A DNA stretch of 64,000 nucleotides, from contig JBFMHR010000005.1 in NCBI GenBank assembly GCA_040751795.1, forward strand, positions 1 to 64,000, read 5' to 3'. Below are positions 9,778 to 64,000 of the stretch, one piece after another. The translations under genes were made by a program, and so were the position numbers. Source of the stretch: Thermoplasmatota archaeon. GTDB lineage: Archaea; Thermoplasmatota; Thermoplasmata; UBA10834. The notes beneath the pieces were generated by a model. That model was not told where the DNA came from. It did not search any database and was given only the letters and a program-made list of their open reading frames with translations. Numbering within the stretch: position 1 is the stretch's first letter; the number at the start of each line of letters is the position of its first letter.

Positions 9778-10079
9778 CCTCCTCGATCCTCCCCGGAGGG
9801 CGATTCGGGGGCGCGCCCTCCTGAAGCGGAATGTAACCACTTTACACTGTATATAACCGTATCGAGTTTCGGAGTACTGGCGCGCCCCTGTGTCATTGTT
9901 AATATTTGTCATGTCGAGGTTTGACTCGCAGCGGGGACAAGTGGCACCTCCGCGCCCGGCCTGGAGGGCTGCTTCTCGCCTCCGGGCGGCCCCCGGGCGC
10001 CGTAACTCGGAGCAAAGGTTGCGCGCAGCTCGTCAAATTTCAAGTACCGCAGGGTGTTACAGAGCATCGGAAAGACGGG

Positions 10080-30468: not shown

Positions 30469-33400
30469 TCACTGCCCCTCAGGGACATGAGGCGTGTCCT
30501 CAGGGACCCTGTTCCTGCGGGCTGCGCCCTTCTTCGTGAAGAGGACGAACATCGCGATGACCATGATGACCGGCACCGCGAGGTCCTGGAACTCGGGTAT
30601 CCTGTCGATTATTATCACGGCCGAAGTGCCGGGGTTCTGCGTCCACTGCCAGCATATCATTGACTCCCCGCTGGCCGAGTAGATGGCGCTGATGTACTGG
30701 ATCTCATAACCCGACTCGCTGTTGATCGTGAAGACCGAGGACCAGCTCCCGCTGGACCTTATCTTCCCCATGACGTCGAGGCTGTCCATCTGGTACCAGG
30801 CGGCATACAGGTCCCCCGTAGAGGTATCTAGGGATATCGTCGGATATCTCTGGCCGATGGAGTCGGCCGATGTGTCGAGCTGCAAAGCGGAGGACCACGA
30901 GCTCGCGTCCCGGTATCTGTACCAGATGTGGGGCTTCTCGATGGAGCTGGACTTGGTCGCGTCGCCGTAGACGACATGGACATAGCCGCTGGAATCCACC
31001 ACCGCGCATGCGGGCGCAGTATCGACGAACGTGAATGTGCCGGTGGCGTCGTATATCGCCTCCTCCGAGCCCCAAGTGGGGCTGGTGTATTTCCTGGCGG
31101 CGACATGGGAGTCGTAGTTGTACACCGCCCAGACGTTGCTGCCCGAGCCCGCAGGGAGGATGGAGCCCTTGAGGGTGGAGGTGCTGGAATCCGTCGCGAG
31201 CATGTTCCCCGTCCAGTACCAGGACGAGACGCTGTCGGTGGAGACGCTCCTGAACGCTGAGAGGTCCCACTTCCCGCCGCCCGTGCTGAGGGTCTGGTTC
31301 GTTACGAGTATCCAGAGGTATCCGTTCGTGTCCTTGGTTATGAAGGAGTTCTTGCTGTTCATGTTGATGGCGCTCACGGACCTGGTCGAATCGCTGCCCG
31401 CCCAGGTGATCGCGTGCGTGCTCGGCGAGACGCTCCCTCTCTGGAGGTAGATATTGGCGGAGTTCGAACCCGTGTCGCCGACCGCGTACACCACGTTGTT
31501 GGCGGAGTCGTACCAGACGGAGGCCTTGAGCACGCCGTTCGTCGAGAACACCCGGTTGTCGGAGTTGCTCCAGGTGGTCCCATCGGTGCTGTATTCGTAC
31601 TTGGTGTTGCTGCCGTCGTAGTAGAAGCTCCAGTAGTTGGTTCCGTCGTGGAAGACCTTCCTCTGGTTCGAGCTCTCAGTCGAGACCCCGGACCCGATCT
31701 GCACGGTCCAGGTCCTCATCGCCATCGCGTAGGTCTGGTCCGAGGCCTGGTCATTCTGGCCCGTCCAGTCGGTCGTCTCGATTATGAAGTCGACCTGCCC
31801 CGCCCCGCCGATGACGGACGAGGCGACCCCGACCTCCATCCTGCTCTCGTCCTTGGCCGCATCCGCCTCCGAGGTGAGCAGGACCCACTCGCCGTCGTCG
31901 TAGGCCCTGACCGTCACCGAGGAGACCTCGTAGCACAGGCCGCTGACCTGTATCATGTAGTCGGCGCCGATCGTGTAGGAGCCCGCCGCCATGTACTTCC
32001 CAGATGCGTCGGAGCGGTCGGAGTCGATGAATATCCTGATGTAGTCCTCCGCGGTCTTCCTGACGGGCACGACCGTGCCGCCGCCCCCGCTCCCCGAGGG
32101 GACCGCGCAGGCCTTGGGGATGTACACGCCGGCGCAGATCTCGTCGTAGACGCTGACGTAGAAGAACGCGTCGCCCCCGGTGCTGTTGGCCCCGACCTCG
32201 TCGATGTCGACGTTGGGGTTCTCCACCAGGGAGCCGTCCTGGTCCTTCACCGTCTTGTTGGTCCAGTCGGCGAAGGCGCCGTCTATCGTTATGCCCGCCG
32301 GCGGGCCGGCCACGTAGGCGCTCGCCGGTGCGCCCCTTATGATGACGTCCGTGAAGGTCGACGTGATGCCCTCCAGGACGACGCTGGCCGACACGAAGTC
32401 CCCGGGCGCCAGCCCGGAGGTGTCCACCCGGACGTCAACCACATGCGCCTCGCCCACCTCGAGGGAGAAGGGCTGTATCTGGCCGGAGACGTCAGCGCCG
32501 ACCGTCTCCGGCACGACGGCGCTGACCGTCCCGTCCTCGCCGTCGCATGTGAACCTGAGCCTGAGGAGGTCCGCGTCCGCCGACGCCGGGACTATGCCGT
32601 CGTCCGAGACGCCCGGGGCCAGCTCCTGCTGGACCACGAGCAGCCCGCCCGCGAGGGAGACCGGGTAGCTCGCGCTCTTGACGGCCTCCTCGTCCTGGGA
32701 GGTGAGCATCGCCTTGGCGGAGACGTTCAGGGCGCTGGGGAGGGACGCCTTCGCCTCGAGGCGGTCCCCGTCCAGGCCGCAGGGCACGTAGCCGGCGGTG
32801 GCCCACGAGTTCCAGTCGGCCTGGTCGTCGCCGTCGGGGTCGTACGCCGAGAGCATCGACGACTGGACGGAGTCGTTCCAGCCGAACACCTCGACCATGT
32901 AGTCCGCCCCCACGCCGCCGAGCAGATAGCCCGTCTCGGGCGAGGAGTCCTGGTCGATGAACCACACGAACCTCTGGGCGTCCGTCCCGGACATCAGGTC
33001 GCCCGTCCCGTGGACGTAGAAGTAGACGTCGTGCGAGTAGGTAGCGAAGGACCACTCCACCACGTCCGCAGCTACGCCGGTGGTGGTGCTCGTGACGCTG
33101 AACATGGACGCCTCCTCCCAGTCGGCGAAGTCCCCGTCGACCGAGTAGGGCCCGTCGTCGCCCATGTCCGAGATGTGGAGGTAGCTGGGGACGATGATCG
33201 CCACCGCTATGAGGACCGCGATGAACTGCCAGCGCATGTATATCGGGAGCCTGCGCCTCGCGCCCCTGCCGCGGCGCCTGGCGCCGAGGCCGTTGGACGC
33301 GCCCGTGCCGTTCACGAGGTCCTTGCCGTTGACGGCCCCGATCCCGTTGACGAAGTGGACGCCGTTGGTCTGGCCCATGCCGTTGATGGCGCCGCGGCCG

Positions 33401-34467
33401 TTGATCGCCCCCCTCCCGTTTATCGCGCCGCGCCCGTTGATGGCCCCTCTCCCGTTTATGGCGCCCCTGCCGTTTATGGCACCCCTTCCGTTGATGGCGC
33501 CTCTGCCGTTGACGGCGCCCCTGGTGCCCGACGGGCCGAGGCCGTTGACCATGTGCACGCCGTTGGTCTGCCCGCGTCCGTTGACCTGCCCCCTGCCGTT
33601 GATGGCGCCGGCTCCGTTGGTCATGCTGACGCCGTTGGACCTCCCGGCGCGGACGGTCGCCGCCCCTGCGGGCATCTGGGTGACCAGGCCGCGCTCGCCC
33701 TCGGCGACGACGGGCTCGGGCGGCTTAGGCGCCCTGAGCGGCTCGCGGGAGGGGAGGGCCTCCTCTTCCTCGGGCTCCTCGTCCTCGAAGGCGACGCCGC
33801 AGAAGGGGCAGTTGGACGCGTCGAACGTCACGACCGCGCCGCAGATGGGGCACGCCGCCTTCTCGGCGTCGTACTCCTCCTCGGCCTCCCCCTCCGCGGG
33901 GGCGAGCTCGGGCTCGGGGGCCGGCGCCTCGGGCTCGGGCGCAGGTGCCTCCTCCTCCGGCTCCTCGGCCTCGAACTCCGCGCCGCAGCCCGGGCACGCG
34001 GTGTCGTAGATCGAGACCACGTGCTGGCACACGGGGCAGAGCGCCTCCTCATCGCCTTCTGCCTGAGGCTCCGGGGGGGCCTCCGGGGGAGGCTGCCGCT
34101 CACCCTCGACGGGCTCGGCGGGTACGTCTCTGGGGGCCGCCGTCTGGGCGGTGATTGGTGCAGAATCAGGCTCCGATGGACGTTTCTTGACCTGCCCGTC
34201 CGTCTTCAGGTCCTCGATCTCCTCGACGATCTTGTCGAGGGCCTTCTGCCACAGCTGCTCCTCGGCGTTCTCCACGAAGTTGTCGAAGCCGATCTGGCAG
34301 GAGGGACAGGCCTCAAGGAAGGGGGAGACGGGGGTGCTGCAGAAGGGGCACTCGAGCTTGATGTCCGGCCCGAACTTGAGCTTGCATCTAGGGCATTCGC
34401 TCTCCAACCCTGAAACCCTGAGGCTGCAGCCTGGGCAAGAGAATATCCTGGGCCTTATGCGGTTCAT
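30469..34467 (-). CDS. Large surface protein: 4 Zn ribbons, xxxxNG hexapeptide repeats, TM, duplicated DGxFxDW domains, beta-rich C-domain, PEF-CTERM
   Basis: 8 CPxC motifs, acidic Pro-rich linkers, 19 NG units, basic stretch then TM, IPEF plus TM plus basic tail. Confidence 0.85.
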   Translation of the reverse strand: MNRIRPRIFSCPGCSLRVSGLESECPRCKLKFGPDIKLECPFCSTPVSPFLEACPSCQIGFDNFVENAEEQLWQKALDKIVEEIEDLKTDGQVKKRPSEPDSAPITAQTAAPRDVPAEPVEGERQPPPEAPPEPQAEGDEEALCPVCQHVVSIYDTACPGCGAEFEAEEPEEEAPAPEPEAPAPEPELAPAEGEAEEEYDAEKAACPICGAVVTFDASNCPFCGVAFEDEEPEEEEALPSREPLRAPKPPEPVVAEGERGLVTQMPAGAATVRAGRSNGVSMTNGAGAINGRGQVNGRGQTNGVHMVNGLGPSGTRGAVNGRGAINGRGAINGRGAINGRGAINGRGAINGRGAINGRGAINGMGQTNGVHFVNGIGAVNGKDLVNGTGASNGLGARRRGRGARRRLPIYMRWQFIAVLIAVAIIVPSYLHISDMGDDGPYSVDGDFADWEEASMFSVTSTTTGVAADVVEWSFATYSHDVYFYVHGTGDLMSGTDAQRFVWFIDQDSSPETGYLLGGVGADYMVEVFGWNDSVQSSMLSAYDPDGDDQADWNSWATAGYVPCGLDGDRLEAKASLPSALNVSAKAMLTSQDEEAVKSASYPVSLAGGLLVVQQELAPGVSDDGIVPASADADLLRLRFTCDGEDGTVSAVVPETVGADVSGQIQPFSLEVGEAHVVDVRVDTSGLAPGDFVSASVVLEGITSTFTDVIIRGAPASAYVAGPPAGITIDGAFADWTNKTVKDQDGSLVENPNVDIDEVGANSTGGDAFFYVSVYDEICAGVYIPKACAVPSGSGGGGTVVPVRKTAEDYIRIFIDSDRSDASGKYMAAGSYTIGADYMIQVSGLCYEVSSVTVRAYDDGEWVLLTSEADAAKDESRMEVGVASSVIGGAGQVDFIIETTDWTGQNDQASDQTYAMAMRTWTVQIGSGVSTESSNQRKVFHDGTNYWSFYYDGSNTKYEYSTDGTTWSNSDNRVFSTNGVLKASVWYDSANNVVYAVGDTGSNSANIYLQRGSVSPSTHAITWAGSDSTRSVSAINMNSKNSFITKDTNGYLWILVTNQTLSTGGGKWDLSAFRSVSTDSVSSWYWTGNMLATDSSTSTLKGSILPAGSGSNVWAVYNYDSHVAARKYTSPTWGSEEAIYDATGTFTFVDTAPACAVVDSSGYVHVVYGDATKSSSIEKPHIWYRYRDASSWSSALQLDTSADSIGQRYPTISLDTSTGDLYAAWYQMDSLDVMGKIRSSGSWSSVFTINSESGYEIQYISAIYSASGESMICWQWTQNPGTSAVIIIDRIPEFQDLAVPVIMVIAMFVLFTKKGAARRNRVPEDTPHVPEGQ
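33289..33640 (-). repeat. Intragenic 18-bp degenerate tandem repeat encoding (RGAING)n
   Basis: CCGTT recurs every 18 nt from 33362 to 33506; synonymous codons vary between copies. Confidence 0.9.
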
Positions 34468-43719: not shown

Positions 43720-44682
43720 CTATCTCGACCTCCTCTCGACGACGCGCTTCCTGATGAACAGGGCCATGACGACCATGATCCCCACGACGCAGACGATGAT
43801 CACCGCGCCGGCGCCGATGGTGACCACCCACTCCAGCATCGATACCAGCTCCGACTCGTTGTCGACGAACACCGCGATCTCCTTGCTCACCGAGTCGCCG
43901 GTCGAGTCGACCACCGTGACTATTATCACATGGCCGCCCTCGGTCATGTTGGTCGTGTCAACGGTCCAGCTGAACGGGGCGGAGGCGAGCTCGCTCACGA
44001 CGGTCCCATCGATCTTCAGTGTGGCGGACTCGATCTCGTCCACGCTGACGATGTTGGCGTTTATCGTGAGGTTGCCCGACACCGTTGCGGAGTTCGAGGG
44101 CGAGGTTATGACGACCGTGGGGATGTTGGCGACGGGGTCGCCGTCGCCCCCGTCGTCGCCGCCGGAGTAGTCGGTGACGGTGAAGACGAGGCCGGCCGAG
44201 TAGTCGTTCGCGTAGGTCCCGGGGCCTCCGTGCATCTCCCTCGCGAAGAGGACGTGCACGCCGAGGCTGGACGGCGCAGTGAGGTCCCACGACATGGACA
44301 CGGAGCCCTGGTAGTCGGAGACCTCGTAGTAGTTGTAGGTCGTCGACCCGCTGGGGTCGGCGACGATGGCCCATCCGTCGGCGGAGGGCTGGCTGTTCGT
44401 GTAGGTGGTGGAAGACACGATCATTACTCCGAGCGGCGAGTCGTCCGCCTCCCCGCCGGAGACACCGACGGTCAGGGTCAGCGCCCCGCCCGGCGCGGGG
44501 GTCACGTTGGTGGCGCTCATGGTCATGACCGACGTGCTGGTGGCGTCGTGGCAGGAGCCGCCGCAGTCGTACTCGAGGTCGTCGCTGTCGACTCCTCCTG
44601 GGTTGGCGTATATGCCAGGAGACATGACTATCGCGGCCAGGACCACTCCCATGACGAGAACGAGCAGGTTGCCCTTCCTCAG
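43720..44682 (-). CDS. Secreted, C-terminally anchored protein with CX3CH heme c-like motif, Reeler-like and Ig-like domains
   Basis: Signal peptide, CGGSCH at 44548-44565, WDLTAP, Ig-like domain (VDTTNMTEGGH), C-terminal TM plus RKR; probable CTG start after GAGGGGG. Confidence 0.75.
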   Translation of the reverse strand: MRKGNLLVLVMGVVLAAIVMSPGIYANPGGVDSDDLEYDCGGSCHDATSTSVMTMSATNVTPAPGGALTLTVGVSGGEADDSPLGVMIVSSTTYTNSQPSADGWAIVADPSGSTTYNYYEVSDYQGSVSMSWDLTAPSSLGVHVLFAREMHGGPGTYANDYSAGLVFTVTDYSGGDDGGDGDPVANIPTVVITSPSNSATVSGNLTINANIVSVDEIESATLKIDGTVVSELASAPFSWTVDTTNMTEGGHVIIVTVVDSTGDSVSKEIAVFVDNESELVSMLEWVVTIGAGAVIIVCVVGIMVVMALFIRKRVVERRSR

Positions 44683-44723
44683 ACTCTCTCCCCCTCGGCC
44701 CTTGAGCTCCCGGGCCCTCCGCC

Positions 44724-44747
44724 CGATAACGGGGTTATCGTTAATAA
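44724..44747. promoter_or_regulatory. Perfect 7-3-7 inverted repeat next to a TATA box in the cytochrome/ccmF divergent region
   Basis: CGATAAC-GGG-GTTATCG at 44724-44740, adjacent to TTAATAA at 44741-44747. Confidence 0.55.
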
Positions 44748-44833
44748 TCGTTTTGAGTTCGTCGCGCCCTCGCCTCCGACCGCCACTGATTAAATATGGC
44801 GAACCTGTTCCTGAGACACTGGGGGCGAGTTCC

Positions 44834-46870
44834 GTGGCTCCGGGGAACATCCTTCTTGCGATGAGCGTGATATTCTCAGTCGCCTCGGCTCTGCTGTCCG
44901 TACCTCGGATCGCAATGATGGTTCCCGCAAGAAGGTTGGTGGCCGAGTGGCTTATGGTCCTCTCGTTCCTCTCCATCACAGGGGCCCTCGCCCTCATCGT
45001 GCACGCCTTCACATCGTTGGACTTCTCGGTCCTATACGTCTGGGAGCACTCGTCCTCGGACCTGGACCCGCTGTACAGGCTCTCGGCAGTCTGGGCCGGA
45101 GGCGGTGGCTCCCTCCTGCTGTGCACGTGGTTCATCTCCTTGTCATGGCTCATCTCCTCAGCCATGATCTATCAGGGGAACGTCAGCGCAGGGAAACAGA
45201 GGCCTGGGGCAAGGTTCGCATCAGTGTCCTCGGCAATCATGTCCGTCTTGGTCGCCTTTTTCGCATTCACTGTCCTCATGTCCGGCGTCTTCGACAAGAC
45301 CCCCGCCGCGTCCCTCGCTGCAAACCCTGATGGCCTGGGCCTGGATACACTCCTTCAGTCTCCGGAGATGGTCCTCCACGCGCCCCTGATACTCGGCGCA
45401 TATGCCGCGCTCTGCTCGGTGTTCGCGTCGTCGGCCGCACATCTCGTCACGGGTGATCGTCACTGGCACAGGGTCTCTCTCCCGTGGGGAAGGTTCGCCT
45501 GGGTGACGCTGACCGCCGGAATCGGCCTAGGGGCCGTGTGGGCGTACTATGTCATCGGCTGGGGAGGCTACTGGTCCTGGGATCCGGTGGAAACCGCCTC
45601 GCTCGTCCCGTGGCTCATGGTGACGGCCTTCCTGCACACACAGCAGAGGCAACTCCAGAAGGAGGAGTACCCGGTCGCGTCTCCGATGTTCGGAATGCTC
45701 TCGCTCGTGGGGGTCGTGTTCGTCTCCTTCGTCGTGCGCGCGGGAGGGCTGTGGAGCTCCTCGGTGCATGACTACGGCGCCTCGTCGGAGTCATCGGCCG
45801 TGGCCAGGCTCGCCTTGCTGCTGTCGAAGGATCCGTCAGTCGCGGGCGTCCTCGTCTTCATGCTCGCCCTGCTGGCCGCATCGCTCATCCTGTCGTTCCG
45901 CGCGAGCAGGAGGCTCGGCCCGTCCCAGCCAGTGGGCGCGCCGCCGAGGCTGAGCGGGTACGTCACGGACCGCAACAACATGTTCGCGGCAGTGGTCCTC
46001 ATCGCCCTGTCCGCGTCGGTGGCCGTCGCGCTGATGCTCAAGACCGTCGGGTCGGACGCGGCCGCGACCTACGCGGAGCTCGACCAGAAGATGACCGCGC
46101 TCTTCGTCGCGCTCATGGTCGCCCTCGCCCTCTGCATGGCCTGGAGGCTCGTGGGGAGGGAGCGCGCCCTCCCGATGGTCCTGGCCCTGGTCGTGGCCTC
46201 GGCCGTGCTCGCGGCCGTGGCGGCGTGGACCGGCGCCGTCGACGGCGCGGTGGCCTTCGCGCTGCCGTCGTGCTGCCTGGTGATAGTCGCCTCTTCTGTG
46301 AGGCTGGCACAGACTCTGTCGAAGGGGCCCGGCAGGAGCAGGGCCTACAGGGCCGGGGCGCAGGTCGCGCACATCGGGGTCGCCCTTCTCATCGCGGCGT
46401 TCGTGGTCTCGTCCAACATGCAGTCGTACCCTGCCCAGGGCCCAGAGGTGGCGCTGGGGGTCGGGGGCCAGGTGTCGGTCGGTGACTACGTGGTCGAGTT
46501 CGTCCGCATGGACTTCAGCTACGATGTCGATGGACGCCCCGCCGGCGTGACGATGGTCAGGACGGCCTACGTGGACATCTACGAGGGCGAGAGGCTCGTC
46601 CAGGTCGATGTCCCCCTGGAGGTGCTGTACGGCGGGAACGAGGCCGCGGGTTACTACGAGCTAGAGAGGGTGGCCTTCGTCGACTCCTCCATCTCCGGGG
46701 ACCTCTACCTGAGCTACGCGGTCATGTCCTACGATGTCATCCTGCTGCACGCGAAGGTGGTCCCTGCGATGTGGGCGCTATGGGCCGGCGCGCTCCTCCT
46801 GATCTCCGGGATGGCCGTCCGCATGTGGGCCTTCGGCCCGACCGAGGCGGCCTCCCGCGAGGACGCCTAG
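44834..46870 (+). CDS. ccmF: Cytochrome c heme lyase CcmF/NrfE
   Basis: DFSVLYV, WAG.GSLLL, LHAP, WAYYVIGWGGYWSWDPVETASLVPWL, SVHD and HIG; GTG start. Confidence 0.9.
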   Translation: MAPGNILLAMSVIFSVASALLSVPRIAMMVPARRLVAEWLMVLSFLSITGALALIVHAFTSLDFSVLYVWEHSSSDLDPLYRLSAVWAGGGGSLLLCTWFISLSWLISSAMIYQGNVSAGKQRPGARFASVSSAIMSVLVAFFAFTVLMSGVFDKTPAASLAANPDGLGLDTLLQSPEMVLHAPLILGAYAALCSVFASSAAHLVTGDRHWHRVSLPWGRFAWVTLTAGIGLGAVWAYYVIGWGGYWSWDPVETASLVPWLMVTAFLHTQQRQLQKEEYPVASPMFGMLSLVGVVFVSFVVRAGGLWSSSVHDYGASSESSAVARLALLLSKDPSVAGVLVFMLALLAASLILSFRASRRLGPSQPVGAPPRLSGYVTDRNNMFAAVVLIALSASVAVALMLKTVGSDAAATYAELDQKMTALFVALMVALALCMAWRLVGRERALPMVLALVVASAVLAAVAAWTGAVDGAVAFALPSCCLVIVASSVRLAQTLSKGPGRSRAYRAGAQVAHIGVALLIAAFVVSSNMQSYPAQGPEVALGVGGQVSVGDYVVEFVRMDFSYDVDGRPAGVTMVRTAYVDIYEGERLVQVDVPLEVLYGGNEAAGYYELERVAFVDSSISGDLYLSYAVMSYDVILLHAKVVPAMWALWAGALLLISGMAVRMWAFGPTEAASREDA

Positions 46871-49012: not shown

Positions 49013-49651
49013 ATGGATGATGAGGCCGTAGAGACGCAGCCACAGGAGGAGCAGACGAGCCAGCTGCTCATACCGGAGGAGGTCTACCTCACATCCGGAG
49101 TCCACATCGGCACCCAGCAGAAGAGCGCCGACATGAAGGAGTTCATCTTCAAGGTAAGGACCGACGGCCTGTACGTCCTCGACGTCAAGAAGACCGACGA
49201 CAGGATAAGGGTCGCGGCCAGCTTCCTCGCGAGGTACGACCCGGCGAAGATACTGGTCGTCTCGGCGAGGCAGTACGGGCAGAAGCCCGCCAAGGTCTTC
49301 GCGAAGACCCTGGGCGCGGCCGTGGTCGCGGGCAGGTTCGTCCCCGGCTCGCTCACCAACCCGATCCTCCCGCACTTCATCGAACCGGAGGTCATATTCG
49401 TCACCGACCCGGCGGCGGACGAGCAGGCCCTGAGGGAGGCCCTGAGCGTCGGCATACCGATCGTGGGCATCTGCGACGCCAACAACGAGACGAGGCACGT
49501 GGACCTCGTCGTGCCGTCGAACAACAAGGGCAGGCGCGCCCTCGCGACGGTCTACTGGCTCCTGACCAGGGAGATCCTGAAGGCCAGGGGCACGGTCAAG
49601 ACGGACGACGACTTCAAGATGACCGTCGACGACTTCGAGGCCTCGCTCTGA
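49013..49651 (+). CDS. rps2: 30S ribosomal protein uS2 (archaeal)
   Basis: [21 protein letters not shown] and [10 protein letters not shown]. Confidence 0.96.
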
Positions 49652-54974: not shown

Positions 54975-55898
54975 TCAGATCCTCTTCATCATCCCGAGCT
55001 CCGGCTCGTAGACGTCCCCCTTGTCAAGGAGGCTCGCCACGACCTCCTCGAGCCTGACCTTGTCGATCTTCTTGGCCTTGGCCGCCTCGACGACCCTGTC
55101 CCAGGGGGCGCCCTTGCCCCCGGCGTCCAGCTTCTCGATGATCGCCAGGACGGTGCCCTCCTCGTCCGCGCCGACGCCGACCTCGGTCATCTCCCCCTCG
55201 GCCTCCTGCGCCTTCGGCGCGGCGGGGGCCGGGGCCTTCGCCTGCACGCGCGTGGCCGGCCTCTCCTCGCCGGACCACTTGCCCGGAAGGACGGACGAGA
55301 GCGCGTCGCGGACCGAGTCCCTGAACCTGTCGAGGTCGATGTCCTTGTAGTACTCGAGGGCGCGGACCACGCCGTCCGCCAGGTTCTCCGGGTATCCCAG
55401 CTTCATGAGCTCCCCCACGCTCGGCTGCGCCATCTGCATCGCGTCCTTCATGGCCGATATCCTCACCAGGGTGCTCTTCGCGGTCTCGAGTATCCAGTAG
55501 TCCCTCGCGGCCGCGTCCACCTCGACCACGCGCTCGGGCCTGATGCTCAGGTACTTGACGCCCTCCTCGGGGGTGTAGGCCCTGCTCTTCCCGACGATGG
55601 CCGCGAACGCGGGCGGGGACATCTTGGAGAGCGATGCCGCGGCGGCGGGCTGGTACTCGCCCGCAGATACGTAGAACGTTCCGGTGGGGTCCGCGATCCG
55701 GGCCCGGTACCTGGGCTTCCCCTCCTCGCCTATGCTCTCTATGTCCGTGGCGACGCCCACGACCAGCATGCGGTTGACCTTGGCCCCAAGCGGGGTGATG
55801 ACGTACGAGGTGGGCTTCTCCCCCTCGCCCGTGTACTCGAGCGTCGAGGAGTTGTACTCCTCGGAGAAGAGGCGCCACGCGACCTCGCGGGCGTTCAT
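54975..55898 (-). CDS. RPA-associated OB-fold protein (COG3390, RPA32-like)
   Basis: REVAWR, TPLGAKVNR, DPTGTF, YQP, C-terminal wHTH (YEPELG); ATGA-coupled to rpa. Confidence 0.87.
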   Translation of the reverse strand: MNAREVAWRLFSEEYNSSTLEYTGEGEKPTSYVITPLGAKVNRMLVVGVATDIESIGEEGKPRYRARIADPTGTFYVSAGEYQPAAAASLSKMSPPAFAAIVGKSRAYTPEEGVKYLSIRPERVVEVDAAARDYWILETAKSTLVRISAMKDAMQMAQPSVGELMKLGYPENLADGVVRALEYYKDIDLDRFRDSVRDALSSVLPGKWSGEERPATRVQAKAPAPAAPKAQEAEGEMTEVGVGADEEGTVLAIIEKLDAGGKGAPWDRVVEAAKAKKIDKVRLEEVVASLLDKGDVYEPELGMMKRI

Positions 55899-57214
55899 CG
55901 GCTCTCCTCCATCTCCACGAGGAGGCGCTCGACCTCGGCCCGCACGTCCTCCGTGCCGGCCGCGGCCTCGTTCACGATCATGGACAGGCCGTACTCGTCG
56001 GACGTGACGTTCCCGGTGAGGGTGAGGACCCTGAGCAGGAGCGCGTCCTCGACCATGTCCCTGACGACGTCGAGGTTCATGGACTTCTTGGCGGCCTCCA
56101 TGCACTCGTCCAGGGTGCGCCCTATGAGCCTCTCCGTGAGCTCCCGCCCCACGACCGCGCTCACCGCGCCGCTGCCGTCGTCGACGATGGTCTTGACCCT
56201 CAGGTCCGGGGTGCCGTCGACCCGGCCGTGGACCTTGCACGAGCCCTTCTGGAGTGCGCGCCTGCAGTCCGGGCACCTCATGATGAGGCCGGAGCCGTCC
56301 CTGACCTCTATCACCGCGCCCTTCACCGTCGCGTCGGCCGCGCCGCCCCTCGAGGCGACCTCGGATATCATCGACACCGCGCTCTTCTGGAGCTCCTCCG
56401 CCGACGGGAACTTCTCCTTGACCTTGAGGACCTCCGCCCGCTCGTCGAAGTTGAGCTGGGGTATGCCCCTCCAGCCCTTGACGGTGGCCTTGGAGATCCT
56501 GAGGATGTCCCCCTCCTTGACCTTGAAGTCGGACCAGGCGGTGAACTGGACCTTGCCGCTCTCGTCCGCGATGACGCCGGAGAAGATCCTCTTCTGCTCG
56601 CCCTTGACGGTCACGTCCCTCCCCTCCACGGAGAGGACGCGGCCCTTGACCTGGACGTAGCCCATGCCCTCCCTGAGCTCCGCCACAGTGGCGACCTTGG
56701 GAGGCCCGTCCGCCACCTGGACGTCCTTGATGGTCTCAGGGTCCTCCTTCCTGATGGTGACCCTGGTGCCGAAGTTGACCTGGACCCTCCCCTGGTACTC
56801 GCGGGTGTAGGCCCCCTTGACCGAGATGACCTCGCCCTTGGAGAGCTCCAGCCCCTCCGTCTCCCAGGCGGTGTAGGGCAGCGTCGTGGAGTCGTCCCCG
56901 ACGAAGCCGTAGATGATCCTCTTCTTCTCGCCCTTGGAGGTGATCTCCTTGCCGTTCGCGGACAGCACCTTGGCGACGAAGTCCACGTTGGGCTCGTTCG
57001 GCCTCAGCTCGGCGAGCTTCCTCTGGAACCCGACCGAGAAGGACTCCGGGTCCCCGCCGTGCTTCTTCACGATGGTCTTCTTGGCCATCGGGATGCTGAG
57101 CCTGTACACGTCGACGTACTTCCTCAGCTCCTCTTCGATCTCCTCTTCAGTCAGCTTGTCCCCGAGCGCCCTGGCGACTTCTTGTACGTAGGGCGCTAGA
57201 TTCTGTATCTCCAT
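55895..57214 (-). CDS. rpa: Replication protein A (multi-OB-fold, Zn finger)
   Basis: Repeated GD.S/ADESG..FTAW OB folds; CPDC...C.VHG Zn finger. Confidence 0.9.
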   Translation of the reverse strand: MEIQNLAPYVQEVARALGDKLTEEEIEEELRKYVDVYRLSIPMAKKTIVKKHGGDPESFSVGFQRKLAELRPNEPNVDFVAKVLSANGKEITSKGEKKRIIYGFVGDDSTTLPYTAWETEGLELSKGEVISVKGAYTREYQGRVQVNFGTRVTIRKEDPETIKDVQVADGPPKVATVAELREGMGYVQVKGRVLSVEGRDVTVKGEQKRIFSGVIADESGKVQFTAWSDFKVKEGDILRISKATVKGWRGIPQLNFDERAEVLKVKEKFPSAEELQKSAVSMISEVASRGGAADATVKGAVIEVRDGSGLIMRCPDCRRALQKGSCKVHGRVDGTPDLRVKTIVDDGSGAVSAVVGRELTERLIGRTLDECMEAAKKSMNLDVVRDMVEDALLLRVLTLTGNVTSDEYGLSMIVNEAAAGTEDVRAEVERLLVEMEESR

Positions 57215-57321
57215 GATACGTCCCCCAATGTTCAGGAGCAGCCGTTCGTCCCTGTGCTGCTCGCCTCATGACTGAGGCCCGGCGATATAAATGGATGCAC
57301 TGCGGGCAGGCGAAAGTACCT

Positions 57322-58080
57322 TCACGCCGGAGGGCGGCCGATGTTCCTGATCCTGTCCGCGCTCCAGACCATCAGGGAGATCTCCTCCCTGCTGAGTATG
57401 GAGTCGATCCCCTCGTACCTCTCCTTCAGTATCTGGACCGCGCCGGAGTGGACCTCGTCCGGGACCTCCCACTGCTCGGAGAACGTCCTCGCCTCGTAGT
57501 TGTGCAGGAGCGCGCCCACGTCGACCGCCTTCTCCTGGACGGTTATGACCGAGACGGAGTCGGGCTGGATGAGGTCCACGAGCTCCCTCTCCATGGGGCC
57601 CGCGTGCTTCACCTCGAAGCCGAGGTCCTTGCACGTCCCGGCGTACATCCTCCTGATCTCCTCGGCCTCCGACCTCCCCTTGTCCGATACGACGGACAGG
57701 AGGGAGGTCCTCGTCACCCTCCCGACCTCCCTCAGCGCGGAGCGCCAGGCCGGTATGAGGTGGATGAGGTGCACGCTGAGGGCGTAGTCGAAGGAGGCGT
57801 CCCTGAACGGGAGGGCGCACGCGTCGCCCCTCACCAGGCCGGCGACGCCCTTGGACGCCGCCTTCTGGAGCATCAGCCTGGCGACGTCTATCCCCACGAC
57901 CTCGAACCCCCTCCTCTGGAGGGGCATGGCGAACCTGCCGGTGCCGACGCCGTCGTCGAGGACGCTGGCGCAGGGCGCCATCGCCTTCTCGACCGCGTCC
58001 ACGATCTTGGACATGATTGCGTCCGGATAGGAGCGCGTCTCGTCGAACTTGTCCGCGATCCGGTCGAAGGACTTCGCCAT
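57322..58080 (-). CDS. Class I SAM-dependent methyltransferase
   Basis: VLDDGVGTG and GDACALPFRDASFD. Confidence 0.9.
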   Translation of the reverse strand: MAKSFDRIADKFDETRSYPDAIMSKIVDAVEKAMAPCASVLDDGVGTGRFAMPLQRRGFEVVGIDVARLMLQKAASKGVAGLVRGDACALPFRDASFDYALSVHLIHLIPAWRSALREVGRVTRTSLLSVVSDKGRSEAEEIRRMYAGTCKDLGFEVKHAGPMERELVDLIQPDSVSVITVQEKAVDVGALLHNYEARTFSEQWEVPDEVHSGAVQILKERYEGIDSILSREEISLMVWSADRIRNIGRPPA

Positions 58081-58342
58081 CCTGCCTGCCTTCCCGGGTA
58101 CGTCATCCCCCTCCCGGGTAGTTCAATGAATCGCTCAAGGCCGCGGGGGGCGGCGCCTAGCACGTCCGCCGGATTGAAGCGCGTTCGACTGCGCATGGCT
58201 GGCATGCTATTCATCTTCACGGGGCCCAGGACGAGTTCTGGAGATTGCGACGTCCGTCCGTGACGAATAGCCGAAAGTCAACCACACACGATAAATACAT
58301 ATCAGCGCAATATGGGCCAGCAACAGCGACTGGGGGGTTTTC

Positions 58343-58747
58343 ATGGCTACTGAGTTCGAGATTTCTGTCTCGGGTCCGACGAAGAATCTGCTGGACGCGA
58401 TAGGCGTCCTGTCGAGCCAGCTGGTCAACCTGGAGACCGTGGCCACGGCCAAGGTCGAGGACAGGTACGTCGTCCGGTTCCTCACCGGCAACGACGACGA
58501 GTGCAGGGGCGCCTTCATGAAGGCGGACCTGCCCTTCAAGGAGAGGAAGGTCCTCGTGCTGGACGTCTTCAACAGGCCCGGGCAGTGGCTCAGGGCCGCG
58601 AGGTGCCTCACGGACGGCGGCGTGGAGCTCGAGGGGAGCTACCTGCTCGGCCAGAAGAACGACCGGCTCAGGTTCGTCTTCGGCGTCAGCGACTACGAGA
58701 AGGCCAAGAAGATCGTCGGCCAGATCACCGACTGCTCCCTGGACTGA
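58343..58747 (+). CDS. Tandem ACT-domain protein (COG4747-like)
   Basis: Two ACT-like repeats, NRPG motif. Confidence 0.75.
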   Translation: MATEFEISVSGPTKNLLDAIGVLSSQLVNLETVATAKVEDRYVVRFLTGNDDECRGAFMKADLPFKERKVLVLDVFNRPGQWLRAARCLTDGGVELEGSYLLGQKNDRLRFVFGVSDYEKAKKIVGQITDCSLD

Positions 58748-58765
58748 GGCCAGGGGGAGCCGCGC

Positions 58766-58963
58766 GTGTGCGAGTCGTCGGTCTACCTCCTCAGGGGCGG
58801 GGAGAAGGTCCTGGTAATGAAGGAGGCCGGGAGGCTGCAGGTCTCCGGCGATGGCATCGTCTGCGTGAGCGCCATGGGCGAGAGGGTCGAGGTCCCGGGC
58901 GCGGAGATCGCAGACGCGAACCTGATCAGGCACGAGATAGTCCTCAGGCCGAGGGGTGAGTGA
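58766..58963 (+). CDS. cooT: CooT-family nickel chaperone
   Basis: N-terminal MCES (Cys2), about 65 aa, C-terminal RHEI; adjacent to cooC. Confidence 0.85.
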   Translation: MCESSVYLLRGGEKVLVMKEAGRLQVSGDGIVCVSAMGERVEVPGAEIADANLIRHEIVLRPRGE

Positions 58964-59771
58964 GGGCCTGTCCCTGAAGGTGGCCGTCGCCGGGAAGGGG
59001 GGCGTGGGAAAGACCACCGTGGCCGGCTCGCTGGCGAGGGTCTGGGCGGCGGAGGGGCGGAGGGTCCTCGCCGTTGACGCGGACCCGGCCGCGCACCTGC
59101 ACTCGGTGCTGGGCATACCCAGGTCCGCGATGCCGAAGCCGATCTCCGAGGAGCTGGACCTCATCGAGGAGAGGACCGGGGCGCGCCCCGGGGCGGCGCT
59201 CGGCCCGTTCTTCAAGCTCAACCCGCGGGTGGACGACATCCCGGACAGGTACTCGGCGACGGGCCCGGACGGGGTCCGCCTCATCGTCCTCGGGACGATA
59301 AGGGCCGCCGGGTCGGGATGCTTCTGCCCCGAGAACGCCCTGCTCAGGGGCCTCCTGGAGCACATCGTGCTGGAGAGGGACGACGCGGTCGTGGTCGACA
59401 TGGAGGCCGGGCTGGAGCAGTTCGGCCGCTCGACCTGCAGGGGCGTGGACCTCCTGCTCATAGTTGTCGAGCCAGGGAGCAGGTCCGTGGACACGGCGGC
59501 CCGGATGGCCGCGCTCGCAAGTGAGATGGGCGTCCCGAGGACCGCCGTCGTGGGGAACAGGGTGGGACCGGGGGAGGAGGCCGCGCTCAGGGGGCTCCTG
59601 GACGCGCGCTCCCTGGAGCTGGCCTTCTCCTTCCCACGCTCGGAGGCCGTGGCGAGGGCGGACCTCGAGTGCCGCTCCCCGTTCGACCCCCCCGAGGGGG
59701 ACGCCTGGGCCGCGGACGTCGGACGCCTATCGAACGTGGTTTCAAGGTTGGCGGGTGAGGGCGGCGGTTGA
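58956..59771 (+). CDS. cooC: CooC/AcsF nickel-insertion ATPase
   Basis: GKGGVGKTT, DADP, GCFCPEN and DMEAGLE. Confidence 0.92.
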   Translation: MSEGLSLKVAVAGKGGVGKTTVAGSLARVWAAEGRRVLAVDADPAAHLHSVLGIPRSAMPKPISEELDLIEERTGARPGAALGPFFKLNPRVDDIPDRYSATGPDGVRLIVLGTIRAAGSGCFCPENALLRGLLEHIVLERDDAVVVDMEAGLEQFGRSTCRGVDLLLIVVEPGSRSVDTAARMAALASEMGVPRTAVVGNRVGPGEEAALRGLLDARSLELAFSFPRSEAVARADLECRSPFDPPEGDAWAADVGRLSNVVSRLAGEGGG

Positions 59772-60096
59772 AGGGACGTCCCCTCGGTCGGCAGGAGCCG
59801 TACACGCCCGGCAAAGAAAACGTATTAGTAGCAACATCTGCATTCGTCGGATGCCGACAGGAAAGCGGCGACAGACAGCGAGCCAGACATGGATGTGCGT
59901 GGGGTGGAAGGAGACAGGACGGGCATTGGGTGCCCCGGCCGGCCCGAATCGGGCGGAAGGGGCGCCACGGGCGACTCGGGGACGGCGTTCCGCGCTCGCG
60001 GACGCCATCGCAAACCGTGCGAATGACACTGAGTTACTGACAGCCTGACGCGTCCTCGCATCCTTAGGACCCCGCGACTGCAGGAGGGAGGTCCCG

Positions 60097-63000
60097 GTGG
60101 GAGCTGAAACGGAGGACAAGGCCGCCAGGCCCGGGGAAGGGGCCAAGGCGGGCGGGAAGTGGGTCTGCGAGTGCTGGGACCAGAGCTGCCAGAGCATGTT
60201 CACGGAGGTGCACGAGGGCGGCATCGCCACCGTCATGGACCGGGCGCCCGACCAGGGGGCCCAGTGCAGGTTCGGCTCCCTCGGCCTCTGCTGCAGGATA
60301 TGCCTCCAGGGGCCATGCAGGATCAACCCCATGGGCAAGGCGCCCACGACGGGCATCTGCGGCGCCCGGGACTACACCATTGTCGCGAGGTACATAGACC
60401 GAATGATAGCCGGCGGGACGGCGTCCCACTCCGCCCACGGCAAGGAGATCGCCCACGTGCTGATGGGCGTGGCCGAGGGCAGGGTCAGGGACTACAGGGT
60501 CACGGACCAGGCGAAGCTCGAGGCGGTCGCGAAGAAGCTCGGGCTCCAGGCGCAGGGCAAGTCCGCCTCGGCCCTCGCCCTCGAGGTCGCGCGCGTCGCC
60601 ATGGAGGACTACTCCAGGTACGAGGAGCACCCCCTCAGGTTCCTCGCCTCCAGCGTCACCAAGGGGAGGATGCGCACATGGGACTTCAACGCCGTCCTCC
60701 CGTCGAACATCGAGACGGCCATCACCAACGTCCTGCACAGGACCGCCATGGGGGTCGACGCGGACCCTGTCCCGATACTCTTCGGCGGCATCGAGTGCGC
60801 CCTCGCCGACTACACGGGCGCGCAGATCTCGTCAGACCTGAGCGACGCCCTCTTCGGCACCCCCAAGCTGGTGCTGAGCGAGGTCAACCTCGCCGTGCTG
60901 GACAAGGGGAGCATCAACGTCGCGGTCCACGGGCACAACCCCCTCCTCAGCGACCTCATGGTCGACGTAGCGCGTGAGATGGCCGACGTCGCGAAGAAGG
61001 CCGGGGCCGAGCGGTTCAACATCGTGGGCGTCTGCTGCACGGGCAACGAGATACTCATGCGCAAGGGCGTCCCCATCGCGTCGAACGTACTGGCCCAGGA
61101 GCTCGTGCTCCTGAGCGGGCTCCTGGACGCGATGGTCCTGGACTACCAGTGCTTCCTGCCGTCCCTCGCGTCGCTGGCGAAGTGCGTCCACACCAGGATG
61201 ATCACCACCGAGGAGGTCGCGAGGCTCGTCGGCGACACGCACATAGAGGTCGTGCCCGAGAGGGCCAAGGAGGCGGCGAGGGAGATCCTCAGCATGGCCG
61301 CCGAGGCGTTCAAGCGCCGCGGGAAGGTCCAGAGGCTCCCGGACATCAGGCCCAGGAGGACCGTCGCGGGCTTCAGCCTCGAGCAGATGAGGCACCTCTT
61401 CGCGGCCAAGAAGCCGGACGACCCGTTCCAGCACCTGGTGGACAACATACAGAGCGGGAACGTGCGCGGCCTCGTCCTCTTCGCGGGGTGCAAGAGCATG
61501 CGCGCCAAGGACAACGAGGACGTGATCACCATCGCCAGGGAGCTCCTGAAGAAGGACGTCCTCGTCCTCACGACCGGGTGCAACGCCATCGAGCTGGCCC
61601 GGGCGGGCTTCATGGACCCCGCGATGGTCAAGGAGCTCGCGGGCGAGGGGCTGCAGTCGTTCCTGAGCGACCTGGCCAAGGCAGCGAGCGTCAAGGACGG
61701 CCTGCCCTGCGTGTGGCACATAGGCTCCTGCGTCGACAACCCGAGGTACGCGAACCTCGCGACCGAGGTGTCCAACAGGCTCGGGGCCGACATAGACAAG
61801 ATCCCCTTCGTCGCGGCCGCGCCCGAGGCGATGCACGAGAAGGCAGTGTCGATAGGCACGTGGGCCGTCGCCATGGGCTTCCCGGTGCATGTCGGCACGA
61901 TCAACTACCTCTACGGCAGCTCCCTGGTCACCGAGGTCCTCGAGAACACCGCCAGGGACGTCTACGGGGGCTACTTCATATTCGAGACCGACCCCCTTGA
62001 GGCCGCGAAGAGGCTCTACTCCGCCATAGAGTACAGGCGGTGGCGGCTCGACCTCACCGACCCGGAGATGGAGCGCGCGTCGCACTACGACGGCCCCCCG
62101 CAGAAGGTGACCAAGGAGAGGCTCTTCAAGATGGCCGTCGAGGGCTCGATCATCGCCACTGGCTACGCCGACGTCCTCCTCAGCCACGCGCTCAGGAGGC
62201 ACGGCCCGGACAAGAAGGTCGAGTTCCCAGAGACCGGGTACCAGCTCCCGAGCCTCTTCGCCTGGCTGGGCAGGGACTGCACCCGCCTCGGGGACCTCCC
62301 CGCGCTCCTGGGCGAGGCCCGCTCCAAGATAGTCGAGGAGCCGACCTTCGAGGCGGCCGTCGCCTCGGGCGAGGCGACCATGATCGCCGCGGAGATAGTC
62401 GAGGCGCTGAAGTACATCGACAACCCGGCGCCGTACGAGGGCACCATGTACTGCGGCTTCGTGCCCGACAGGGTGCTCCGCCAGCTGGGCATAGCCTTCG
62501 TCGACGACACCATCCCGGGTGCGGCCGTGTTCGTCGGCAGGGCGAGCGACACCAAGAAGCTCGCCGCGATGATCCGCGACTGCCAGAACAAGGGCATGCT
62601 CATCATCGCCACATACGACATCATCAAGCAGCTCAAGGACGAGAACGTCGCCATGGGCCTGGACAGGATGCTCTACCCCGTGGGGGAGTTCACCCAGGCC
62701 ATCCACGGCCTGAACTTCGCCATCAGGGCGGCCCTCTCGTTCGGCGGCGTCCAGAAGGGCGACAGGCAGGGGCTCATCAACTACCTCTCGAAGAGGCCCA
62801 AGGTGTTCGTCCTCCAGCTCGGCCCGCTCGACCACATCAAGGTCGCAGCGGAGTTCGCGGTGATGTTCAACGGCTCCCCGACCATAACCGACCAGGACGT
62901 CGAGGCCATCCCCGACAAGTACGTCGTGCAGAAGAACATGGAGGAGATGATCTCCACCGCGATAGAGGTCAGGGGATGCAGGATCAAGCTCGGGGCGGTC

Positions 63001-64000
63001 GACCTGCCCGTCGCGTACGGGCCGGCGTTCGAGGGCGAGACCATCCGCCGGCCGGACATGCACGTCGAGGCGGGCGGCCCGTCGAAGACCATCGCCTTCG
63101 AGCTCCTGAGGATGAGGCCGGCCGAGGAGGTCCAGGACGGCAAGGTCAACTTCATAGGCAAGGACGTGGACGAGCTCCCCGAGGGCTCGTCGACGCACCT
63201 CGGCATCCTGGTGAAGGTGTACGGCAAGAACATGCAGAAGGACTTCGAGTCGGTCCTGGAGCGCAGGATACACCAGTTCGCCAACTTCGCCGAGGGCTTC
63301 TGGCACACAGGCCAGAGGAACCTCCTCTGGGTCCGCCTGAGCAAGAGCTCCGTGAAGGCGGGGCTGAGGCTGAGGCACATAGGCGACATCCTGATCACCA
63401 AGATGAAGCAGGAGTTCGGGGCGATAGTGACCAAGATCGAGGTCACGGTGGTCACGGACGAGGCGGAGCTGAGGAAGCACCTGGACGAGGCGAGGGAGGC
63501 CTACGCCGAGAGGGACGCGAGGATAGCGGACCTCACGGACGAGAAGGTCGACACCTTCTACACCTGCACCCTGTGCCAGACCTTCGCCCCCGGCCACGTG
63601 TGCATAGTGACGCCCGAGCGCCTGGGCCTCTGCGGCGCCATCAACTGGCTCGACGCGAAGGCGTCCTTCCAGATCGCCCCGACGGGCCCGAACAACCCCG
63701 TGCAGAAGAGGGAGACGATCGACGAGGTCAAGGGGCAGTGGGCGGGGGTGAACGAGGCCGTGGCGGCCAAGACCCAGGGGAGGTTGCAGAAGTTCAGCGC
63801 CTACACGATGGTCGAGGACCCGATGACCTCGTGCGGCTGCTTCGAGTGCATCGTTGCCGTGTCGCCTGACCTGCAGGGCGTGGTCGTGGTCAACAGGGAG
63901 TACGCGGGCATGACGCCCCTGGGGATGACCTTCTCGACGCTCGCCGGCTCGGTCGGCGGCGGCATCCAGACGCCCGGGTTCATAGGCGTCGGGAGGAGGT
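60097..64000 (+). CDS. acsA-acsB: Fused CO dehydrogenase (CooS/AcsA)-acetyl-CoA synthase (AcsB), partial, continues past the window end
   Basis: GTG after GGAGGGAGG; no stop read in frame. CODH motifs: CRFGSLGLCCRICLQGPC..GICG, HSAH, HGHN, CCTGN, DYQC, AGC, TGC, GSC and EKA. ACS motifs: FPETGYQLP, GFVPD..LR.LG...VD.TIPG, CTLCQTFAPGHVC..PERLGLCGA and PMTSCGCFE. Confidence 0.93.
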   Translation, partial: MGAETEDKAARPGEGAKAGGKWVCECWDQSCQSMFTEVHEGGIATVMDRAPDQGAQCRFGSLGLCCRICLQGPCRINPMGKAPTTGICGARDYTIVARYIDRMIAGGTASHSAHGKEIAHVLMGVAEGRVRDYRVTDQAKLEAVAKKLGLQAQGKSASALALEVARVAMEDYSRYEEHPLRFLASSVTKGRMRTWDFNAVLPSNIETAITNVLHRTAMGVDADPVPILFGGIECALADYTGAQISSDLSDALFGTPKLVLSEVNLAVLDKGSINVAVHGHNPLLSDLMVDVAREMADVAKKAGAERFNIVGVCCTGNEILMRKGVPIASNVLAQELVLLSGLLDAMVLDYQCFLPSLASLAKCVHTRMITTEEVARLVGDTHIEVVPERAKEAAREILSMAAEAFKRRGKVQRLPDIRPRRTVAGFSLEQMRHLFAAKKPDDPFQHLVDNIQSGNVRGLVLFAGCKSMRAKDNEDVITIARELLKKDVLVLTTGCNAIELARAGFMDPAMVKELAGEGLQSFLSDLAKAASVKDGLPCVWHIGSCVDNPRYANLATEVSNRLGADIDKIPFVAAAPEAMHEKAVSIGTWAVAMGFPVHVGTINYLYGSSLVTEVLENTARDVYGGYFIFETDPLEAAKRLYSAIEYRRWRLDLTDPEMERASHYDGPPQKVTKERLFKMAVEGSIIATGYADVLLSHALRRHGPDKKVEFPETGYQLPSLFAWLGRDCTRLGDLPALLGEARSKIVEEPTFEAAVASGEATMIAAEIVEALKYIDNPAPYEGTMYCGFVPDRVLRQLGIAFVDDTIPGAAVFVGRASDTKKLAAMIRDCQNKGMLIIATYDIIKQLKDENVAMGLDRMLYPVGEFTQAIHGLNFAIRAALSFGGVQKGDRQGLINYLSKRPKVFVLQLGPLDHIKVAAEFAVMFNGSPTITDQDVEAIPDKYVVQKNMEEMISTAIEVRGCRIKLGAVDLPVAYGPAFEGETIRRPDMHVEAGGPSKTIAFELLRMRPAEEVQDGKVNFIGKDVDELPEGSSTHLGILVKVYGKNMQKDFESVLERRIHQFANFAEGFWHTGQRNLLWVRLSKSSVKAGLRLRHIGDILITKMKQEFGAIVTKIEVTVVTDEAELRKHLDEAREAYAERDARIADLTDEKVDTFYTCTLCQTFAPGHVCIVTPERLGLCGAINWLDAKASFQIAPTGPNNPVQKRETIDEVKGQWAGVNEAVAAKTQGRLQKFSAYTMVEDPMTSCGCFECIVAVSPDLQGVVVVNREYAGMTPLGMTFSTLAGSVGGGIQTPGFIGVGRR

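Follow-up and report, generated by a model that had tools for sequence, protein, structure and literature searches.

Which form of the Wood-Ljungdahl carbonyl branch does an archaeon of the phylum Thermoplasmatota carry, where did it come from, and does it belong to the chromosome on which it is found? [quoted passage not shown] We find that the Wood-Ljungdahl genes form a complete set, folate-type and bacterial in kind, and are native to the archaeal chromosome, with CODH and ACS encoded in a single reading frame, acsA::acsB. From the analysis as a whole, we consider it quite probable that the locus encodes the carbonyl branch of a bacterial-type, folate-dependent pathway present in full, that it is native, that the whole set was derived from a Bacillota-related bacterium, and that the two enzymes were fused by read-through.

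The tetrahydrofolate (H4F) pathway in this order and AcsB in Thermoplasmatota are already in print. In the accessible parts of their report, Zinke et al. (bioRxiv 2020) describe ACS/CODH and Wood-Ljungdahl genes in metagenome-assembled genomes (MAGs) of the order UBA10834 and suggest autotrophy, and the accessible parts of an mSystems 2024 article (PMC11264602) equate UBA10834 with Ca. Gimiplasmatales, report Fhs, FolD, MTHFR, acsA-E, and acetate-CoA ligase, and propose methylotrophic acetogenesis. To judge from its closest named relative, the host studied here appears to belong to Ca. Gimiplasmatales, and its gene set, Hdr/Mvh included, is the same as that given in the accessible parts of these two sources, where the word “fused” occurs 0 times and where fusion, bacterial affinity, and an ACT-cooT-cooC leader are unmentioned. 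A 2026 preprint, in the portion available, places AcsB in Bathyarchaeota, Methanomicrobia, Methanomassiliicoccales, Thermoplasmatota, Halobacteria, and Heimdallarchaea. For the fusion, two rows of Supplementary Table 1 of Inoue et al. 2019 (OGS41472.1 and OGS44063.1; hosts Euryarchaeota archaeon RBG_16_62_10 and RBG_13_57_23) record the same architecture, likened here by the table entries alone, and class it as clade F with a type II D-cluster, a complete C-cluster, and an N-terminal Cys3 motif. Beyond that table, no description of an AcsA-AcsB fusion was found in the searchable literature, a scope with subscription journals and bioRxiv supplements outside it; one match concerning D. autotrophicum was irrelevant, and within this scope the fusion has been recorded and not analysed. 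The locus is an ordinary member of its order as to the pathway, and the single-chain CODH-ACS is the feature worth a bench test.

The fused gene starts with a GTG codon at 60097, with GGAGG a short way before it, and encodes 1380 aa in one frame, of which 1301 aa lie inside the window (Table 1). Residues 28-652 match the CooS-type Ni-CODH model TIGR01702 at 644 bits (cut-off 478), compared with 52 bits for the CdhA model TIGR00314 (cut-off 781), and residues 674-1380 correspond to a full-length bacterial AcsB (NF040764, 840 bits, cut-off 800) with the CODH_A_N, CdhC, and ACS_CODH_B_C domains and PF18537 at 695-774. The CODH half aligns almost gap-free to ChCODH-II (1su6; residues 26-652 to 8-633, 646 bits) and scores 603-627 bits against the CODH chains of 1mjg and 7zkj. 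For the ACS half, the alignments to the Carboxydothermus enzyme (818 bits) and the Moorella enzyme (806 bits) extend over the full length, with residues 673-1378 pairing to 18-728 of the Moorella alpha subunit (1oao_C); the archaeal CdhC chain 9c0s_E aligns to residues 969-1373 alone (356 bits), and TIGR00316 gives 393 bits against this half. Both features named earlier as bacterial, i.e., a CODH without the additions of archaeal CdhA and an ACS that keeps the bacterial N-terminal domain (A1), are thereby borne out.

In these alignments the catalytic residues of both halves appear intact. The ligand positions of the D-, B-, and C-clusters and the acid-base His/Lys are identical to those of 1su6, which we take to be C39 and C47; C48, C51, C56, and C70; H93 and K563; and H261, C295, C333, C446, C476, and C526. 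The CxxCx8Cx9C and Cys-Gly-Cys (CGC) motifs, presumably those of the A-cluster, are invariant across 10 aligned ACS halves. A junction of 15-30 residues, variable in both length and sequence, connects the conserved CODH end (YRRW.L) to the beginning of A1, and an N-terminal Cys3 motif (C24, C26, C31) is found, among twelve aligned proteins, in this one and its closest relative only. Of the earlier label “acsAB”, the presence of both enzymes stands, but they are one gene and not two, and the extent assigned at that time cut both the gene and the cluster short. Separately, an antisense frame of 1542 aa overlaps acsAB and acsD (60832-64000 on the minus strand, continuing to contig position 65460) and is presumed to be a shadow frame of the sort common in high-GC DNA.

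Could the long frame be a sequencing or frameshift artefact, with the organism making separate AcsA and AcsB? Broken frames in some related loci (L013, L015, L017) and an unfused protein (P0151) inside the fused clade would suit such an explanation, which we nevertheless regard as very improbable, as a comparable frame of 1375-1450 aa occurs in 29/301 sampled genomes, all 120 protein clusters listed, from many sources, have the fused form, and the linker stays in frame though variable.

To place the two halves, phylogenies of CODH and ACS were built separately, as the earlier note had proposed, and both halves group with Bacillota acsA-acsB and away from CdhA/CdhC. For ACS (92 rows; quick IQ-TREE search under LG+C20 with posterior mean site frequencies, PMSF; rooted with 14 CdhC sequences from the phylum sample), the 24 archaeal rows come together in a single clade (support 100) that is sister to a Bacillota group of Moorellales, Syntrophomonadaceae, Dethiobacter, Clostridiaceae, and Oscillospiraceae (support 96), deep inside Bacteria, and the fused forms make up one subclade of 14 rows (support 98) that includes P0151. 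For CODH (46 rows), the archaeal halves likewise fall into a single clade (support 99), with the above Bacillota group again attached to it (support 100), and a constraint holding Bacteria monophyletic, tested with three extra CooS paralogues added, is rejected (log-likelihood, lnL, -48.3; approximately unbiased test, p-AU, 1.2e-5). Judging from these trees, the CODH and ACS halves share one history, with Bacillota as their closest relatives.

The pathway around the fused gene is encoded in two places. Past the end of the window, the cluster continues with the remaining carbonyl-branch genes, among them the corrinoid iron-sulfur protein partners AcsC/AcsD (NF003195, 515 bits; NF003376, 338 bits), and the methyl-branch genes stand in a second cluster on contig C1 (Table 1). 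Also detected was an ATP-grasp_5 gene (191 bits) resembling ADP-forming acetyl-CoA synthetases (Acd), and searches of the genome, which is 92.8% complete, found no Ftr, Mch, McrA, or acetate kinase. With fhs, folD, and metF present and Ftr, Mch, and McrA not found, the choice between H4F and tetrahydromethanopterin (H4MPT) raised earlier falls to H4F. Hence, the claim of a bacterial-type carbonyl branch in an archaeal chromosome is upheld by the CooS-like CODH, the ACS with A1, AcsE, and the H4F methyl branch.

Compared with the bacterial AcsA/AcsB systems of Moorella thermoacetica and Carboxydothermus hydrogenoformans (1mjg, 1oao, 1ru3, 7zkj), the locus shares the CooS-type CODH, the three-domain ACS, and the cluster ligands, and encodes the same partners (AcsC, AcsD, AcsE, RACo, and CooC); it differs in having both subunits in one polypeptide joined by the 15-30 residue linker, in its archaeal host, in the ACT-pair gene and cooT that lead the cluster, and in the extra Cys3 motif shared with its closest relative. 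Compared with archaeal CdhABCDE (9c0s), the chemistry is the same and the A2-A3 core of ACS is homologous; the CODH, however, is not CdhA, the ACS keeps A1, a domain absent from CdhC, and the methyl route runs through H4F (AcsE, Fhs, FolD, MetF) and not H4MPT.

By homology to the Moorella and Carboxydothermus enzymes, from which all steps are drawn, AcsAB (1380 residues) would probably dimerise through its CODH domain as the covalent equivalent of the bacterial alpha2-beta2 complex. CO2 would be reduced to CO at the C-cluster, and the CO would pass through the A1-domain tunnel to the Ni-Ni-[4Fe-4S] A-cluster, where CO, methyl, and CoA would be combined to acetyl-CoA. The methyl group, predicted to be supplied by formate dehydrogenase (FDH), Fhs, FolD, and MetF with HdrA/MvhD from the other contig, would be transferred by AcsE from methyl-H4F onto the corrinoid protein AcsC/AcsD, which AcsV (RACo) would reactivate, and nickel would be loaded by CooT and two CooC-type ATPases. 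The ADP-forming acetyl-CoA synthetase-like gene could then give acetate and ATP. The whole set would most likely have come from a Bacillota-related bacterium long ago, and would since have been inherited, lost, and passed among archaea.

Several points weigh against this account, in its ancestry, its activity, and its direction. For ancestry, the two paralogues that make up the CODH outgroup have branches 2.2 changes per site in length; the ACS trees, including that of a reduced 51-row set, come from quick searches; and the CdhC root shifts between data sets, standing in the reduced set at a trichotomy beside the Archaea-Bacillota pair, which itself has support 97. Further, an ACS tree with all 54 bacterial sequences forced together, against archaeal AcsB plus CdhC, beats the free quick tree by 13.35 lnL units (p-AU 0.705). 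This last result would suit a different history, in which the archaeal lineage split off long ago from that leading to all bacterial AcsA/AcsB, the root falling between the two, or in which Bacillota received the genes from Archaea: as each of the two groups, archaeal and Bacillota, is monophyletic with respect to the other, no direction can be read from the topology, and a root of this kind is one of the two options that the 2026 preprint, in the portion available, proposes for the AcsB type. We nonetheless think such a history unlikely, as bacterial monophyly is rejected for CODH, the free ACS trees hold Archaea with the Bacillota group in both data sets, and the distribution within Archaea is patchy (an AcsB-type gene in 60/301 sampled genomes of the class and 8/33 families). 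Thus, of the old inter-domain transfer suggested earlier, the archaeal clade beside Bacillota and the rejected bacterial monophyly of CODH speak for it, and the better-scoring ACS constraint speaks against it; transfer from Bacteria is favoured, not proven, the root of the ACS half is ambiguous, and acquisition from Bacteria is the likelier direction, held with reasonable though far from full confidence.

For activity, RNA-library contigs cover only small parts of the genes, which is a weak hint of transcription. For direction, CODH/ACS is reversible, and the sequence does not fix which way it runs. An AMP-forming acetate-CoA ligase, a formate/lactate-type transporter of the major facilitator superfamily (MFS), and a carbonic anhydrase adjoin fhs/folD/FDH, and the ligase and transporter would also suit oxidation of acetate or methyl groups. 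The pathway may therefore be mainly oxidative or serve methyl-group metabolism (methylotrophic acetogenesis, or acetate/CO oxidation) and not autotrophic CO2 fixation, a possibility that we rate as substantial but the less probable one; in their accessible parts, the mSystems 2024 article (PMC11264602) proposes methylotrophic acetogenesis for the order, but Zinke et al. suggest autotrophy.

Whether the genes truly sit in an archaeal chromosome can be answered with more certainty. The genome (2.05 Mb in 53 contigs, 1.15% contaminated) has a GC content of 0.61-0.68 on every contig, the cluster lies at 58-71 kb within its 276-kb contig, and the tetranucleotide distance of 12-kb windows over it ranks, among 461 genome windows, at the 47th-65th percentile, a composition native to the genome; of the archaeal neighbours named earlier, rpa and rps2 are present in the window. 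The closest named relative, L003 (isolate UBA10834; 86% ACS identity), has the same gene order up to its contig end, and the order rpa-ORF-ACT-cooT-cooC-acsAB-acsD-acsC-cooC2-acsV-acsE-DUF3786 is kept in L004 and L005, with rpa upstream of the same cluster in all three relatives at 64-80% identity (ORF, open reading frame). Pfam and NCBIfam searches gave no match for the 331-aa ORF that follows rpa. Contigs from three other studies span 56913-59024, 57218-59700, 58032-61500, and 58995-60941 at ~95-96% identity, and no public sequencing run was found with more than 0.35 of the window's sampled words.

The junction between rpa and cooC, for which a check of contig integrity had been proposed, thus recurs in three named relatives and is bridged by independent metagenome contigs, and a chimeric join between the two genes is excluded for practical purposes. 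That bacterial DNA was misjoined to an archaeal contig, or that the contig was mis-binned, might be thought of in that Bacteria supply the best-matching relatives among solved structures and among named non-archaeal sequences; set against the position of the cluster deep in the contig, its typical composition, the repeated order from rpa to acsAB, the bridging contigs from other studies (56913-59024, 58995-60941, and 58032-61500), and the presence of the gene in 28/39 sampled genomes of the family, its probability is close to negligible. Mis-assembly was accordingly rejected, being effectively refuted by the conserved gene order, the bridging contigs, and the native composition.

How widespread is the single-chain form? 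A protein search limited to 759-2415 aa gave 417 matches, of which 120 are listed, and all 120 combine CODH with the three ACS domains, mostly in 1330-1390 aa and at 55-89% identity (the window's own entry aside); the named sources among the matches listed are archaea, i.e., Thermoplasmata, Methanomassiliicoccales, Halobacteriota, and one Bathyarchaeia label. When 80 genome loci were compared, a single frame held both domains at 10/22 archaeal and 0/58 bacterial loci. Frames of at least 1300 aa account for the 29 class genomes mentioned above, 25 of them from the family of the host and 4 from one further family. The phylum of genome G041, whose record is labelled Halobacteriota, was sampled with 61 genomes, and 7 of these have the fused gene, six with frames of 1375-1407 aa and G041 itself with a frame that a break shortens to 1145 aa; ~31/61 carry classical CdhC, which was not found in five Halobacteriota- or Euryarchaeota-labelled genomes with the fused gene. 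After clustering at 50% identity, just 3 of the top 150 representatives extend across the junction, so the fusion is one compact archaeal family. As acsA lies directly upstream of acsB in the nearest (sister) Bacillota loci, the fusion would have arisen through loss of the stop codon and the short spacer between the two adjacent genes.

Taken further, and with slightly less than even confidence, we suggest that the single-chain CODH-ACS was one archaeal invention from a bacterial-style acsA-acsB pair, that it became standard in whole families of Thermoplasmata and moved into the phylum of G041 (labelled Halobacteriota), and that the ~990-aa ACS proteins of Methanomassiliicoccales-labelled MAGs are decayed fusions that kept the synthase and lost the CO dehydrogenase. 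If true, this would be a compact, stoichiometrically fixed machine from CO2 to acetyl-CoA that is not known to have been purified. For enzymology, a natural single-chain CODH/ACS with apparently intact metal sites, widespread in uncultured archaea, could ease heterologous expression and structural work on CO channelling. For evolution, the locus adds one more well-assembled case of non-methanogenic relatives of Methanomassiliicoccales that have a folate-type acetyl-CoA pathway with Bacillota as nearest relatives, and is relevant to the number of times that the core of carbon fixation passed from one domain to another, a crossing whose direction and age are still unsettled for the ACS half.

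Other variants were seen along the way. The ~985-1010 aa ACS proteins of Methanomassiliicoccales- and Methanomethylophilaceae-labelled MAGs carry an N-terminal extension of ~290 aa, whose last ~100 residues align weakly and colinearly with the end of CODH (best 13 bits; phmmer alignment through the junction), and which may be a decayed CODH half. Unfused archaeal AcsB loci (L009, L010, L012, L026, L031; Methanomassiliicoccaceae-labelled) have no CODH gene within 7 kb upstream. Several fairly complete relatives of the same genus or family lack the gene (G004, G013, G015, G018, and G023; G018 being one contig and 98% complete), so the cluster was lost, or never gained, within the family. Fused genes under the labels Bathyarchaeia, Halobacteriota, Methanobacteriota, and Euryarchaeota (P0106, P0122, L013, L015, L019) lie within ~0.1 changes per site of one another, which reflects either recent transfer or inconsistent bin labels. 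Four fused or ACS proteins (P0087, P0103, P0158, P0216) are ~500 aa longer, with intein and LAGLIDADG domains (PF14890, PF14528). AcsB frames of 1150-1280 aa with an N-terminal ACS and a long C-terminal extension (L071:6959-10423 and L080:6704-10438, both bacterial, and P0250, P0255, P0260) would be a different kind of fusion.

Among the 80 loci, the ACT-cooT-cooC leader of the cluster is limited to the three closest relatives. Its first gene had been read as an ACT protein. At default thresholds it gave no Pfam or NCBIfam match (ACT_8: E 0.2, 11.9 bits, under the Pfam cut-off of 23.5), and the ACT fold is supported by an AlphaFold2 (AF2) model built with four homologues (mean predicted local distance difference test, pLDDT, 83.4), in which two beta-alpha-beta-beta-alpha units are predicted and whose best Foldseek match is the tandem-ACT protein 2f06_A (BT0572; E 4.7e-9, template modelling score, TM, 0.76), followed by ACT domains of SerB and aspartokinases. 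A language-model search of the ESM Atlas returned ACT-carrying clusters among the matches listed (30 in total; top score 0.91). The protein is 60-65% identical in L003-L005 and, among the 80 loci, occurs only there; it resembles stand-alone tandem-ACT proteins (ACT_8; BT0572, 2f06) in fold and size, but its sequence similarity falls under the Pfam cut-off. The link to amino-acid levels suggested for it earlier would be speculative.

The two genes that follow are predicted nickel factors. CooT begins with M-C-E, and its Cys2 is presumably the Ni-binding residue. The CooC-like protein has visible GKGGVGKT and C-F-C motifs, of which we take the CxC to be the CooC metal site; it matches CbiA/MinD-type families only, none of them CooC-specific, and is 40-53% identical to genes adjoining acs clusters at more than 25 bacterial loci. 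Between cooC and acsAB lies a 325-nt spacer (59772-60096) that is poorly conserved across four species apart from one block of ~45 nt, which is likely an internal promoter or operator to judge from its alignment; no Rfam family was matched in the 20-kb locus, this block included.

Table 1 Features of the locus and of related loci (window or contig coordinates of the host unless a locus is named; aa, amino acids)
Feature	Position	Strand	Evidence or remark
rps2	~49088-49579	+	archaeal context gene in the window
rpa, archaeal replication protein A/single-stranded DNA-binding protein (SSB)	55895-57214	-	NF005554 386 bits, under model cut-off 447; weaker replication factor A/SSB model matches
331-aa conserved ORF between rpa and the ACT gene	57268-58263	+	29-40% identity, same place in L003-L005
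Tandem-ACT protein, stand-alone, 134 aa, first cluster gene	58343-58747	+	AF2 model and Foldseek
cooT, nickel chaperone for CODH, 65 aa	58766-58963	+	PF10133 E 1.7e-13, 51.1 bits, cut-off 27
cooC-like P-loop ATPase, 271 aa, predicted CODH nickel-insertion factor	58956-59771	+	CbiA/MinD-type matches
Conserved block, ~45 nt, AT-rich TATA-like core	59814-59858		near-invariant columns, four-species alignment
Fused acsA::acsB, 1380 aa	60097-64239 (window part 60097-64000)	+	one frame, no internal stop
CODH domain	~60178-62052	+	profile matches
Linker	~62053-62121	+	variable stretch
ACS (A1-A3)	from ~62122	+	profile matches
acsD	64255-65205		contig, past the window
acsC	65198-66532		contig, past the window
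Second cooC-like gene	~66533-67285	-	contig, past the window
acsV (RACo)	67282-69186	-	NF040756 567 bits, under cut-off 800; all four RACo Pfam domains
acsE	69315-70091		NF005719 284 bits, cut-off 259
DUF3786 gene	after acsE		contig, past the window
HdrA-like gene, formate dehydrogenase alpha	contig C1, second cluster		formate dehydrogenase alpha: TIGR01591 826 bits
MFS formate/lactate-type transporter, carbonic anhydrase, AMP-forming acetate-CoA ligase	contig C1, second cluster		
FolD, Fhs, second HdrA-like gene, MvhD, 234-aa ORF, MetF	contig C1, second cluster		
ACS forms of ~985-1010 aa	L011:4132-7095, L023:2122-5085		also P0214, P0230, P0232, P0233, P0236, P0243

Elsewhere in the window, three very large ORFs with high GC3 (142-4113, 4273-9912, and 30469-34467, all on the minus strand; 1323, 1879, and 1332 aa) gave no NCBIfam match at E 1e-10. 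A plus-strand gene at 44405-46870 encodes a homologue of CcmF/NrfE-like haem lyases (TIGR00353, 195 bits, below cut-off), and its sequence hints at c-type cytochrome maturation in this archaeon.

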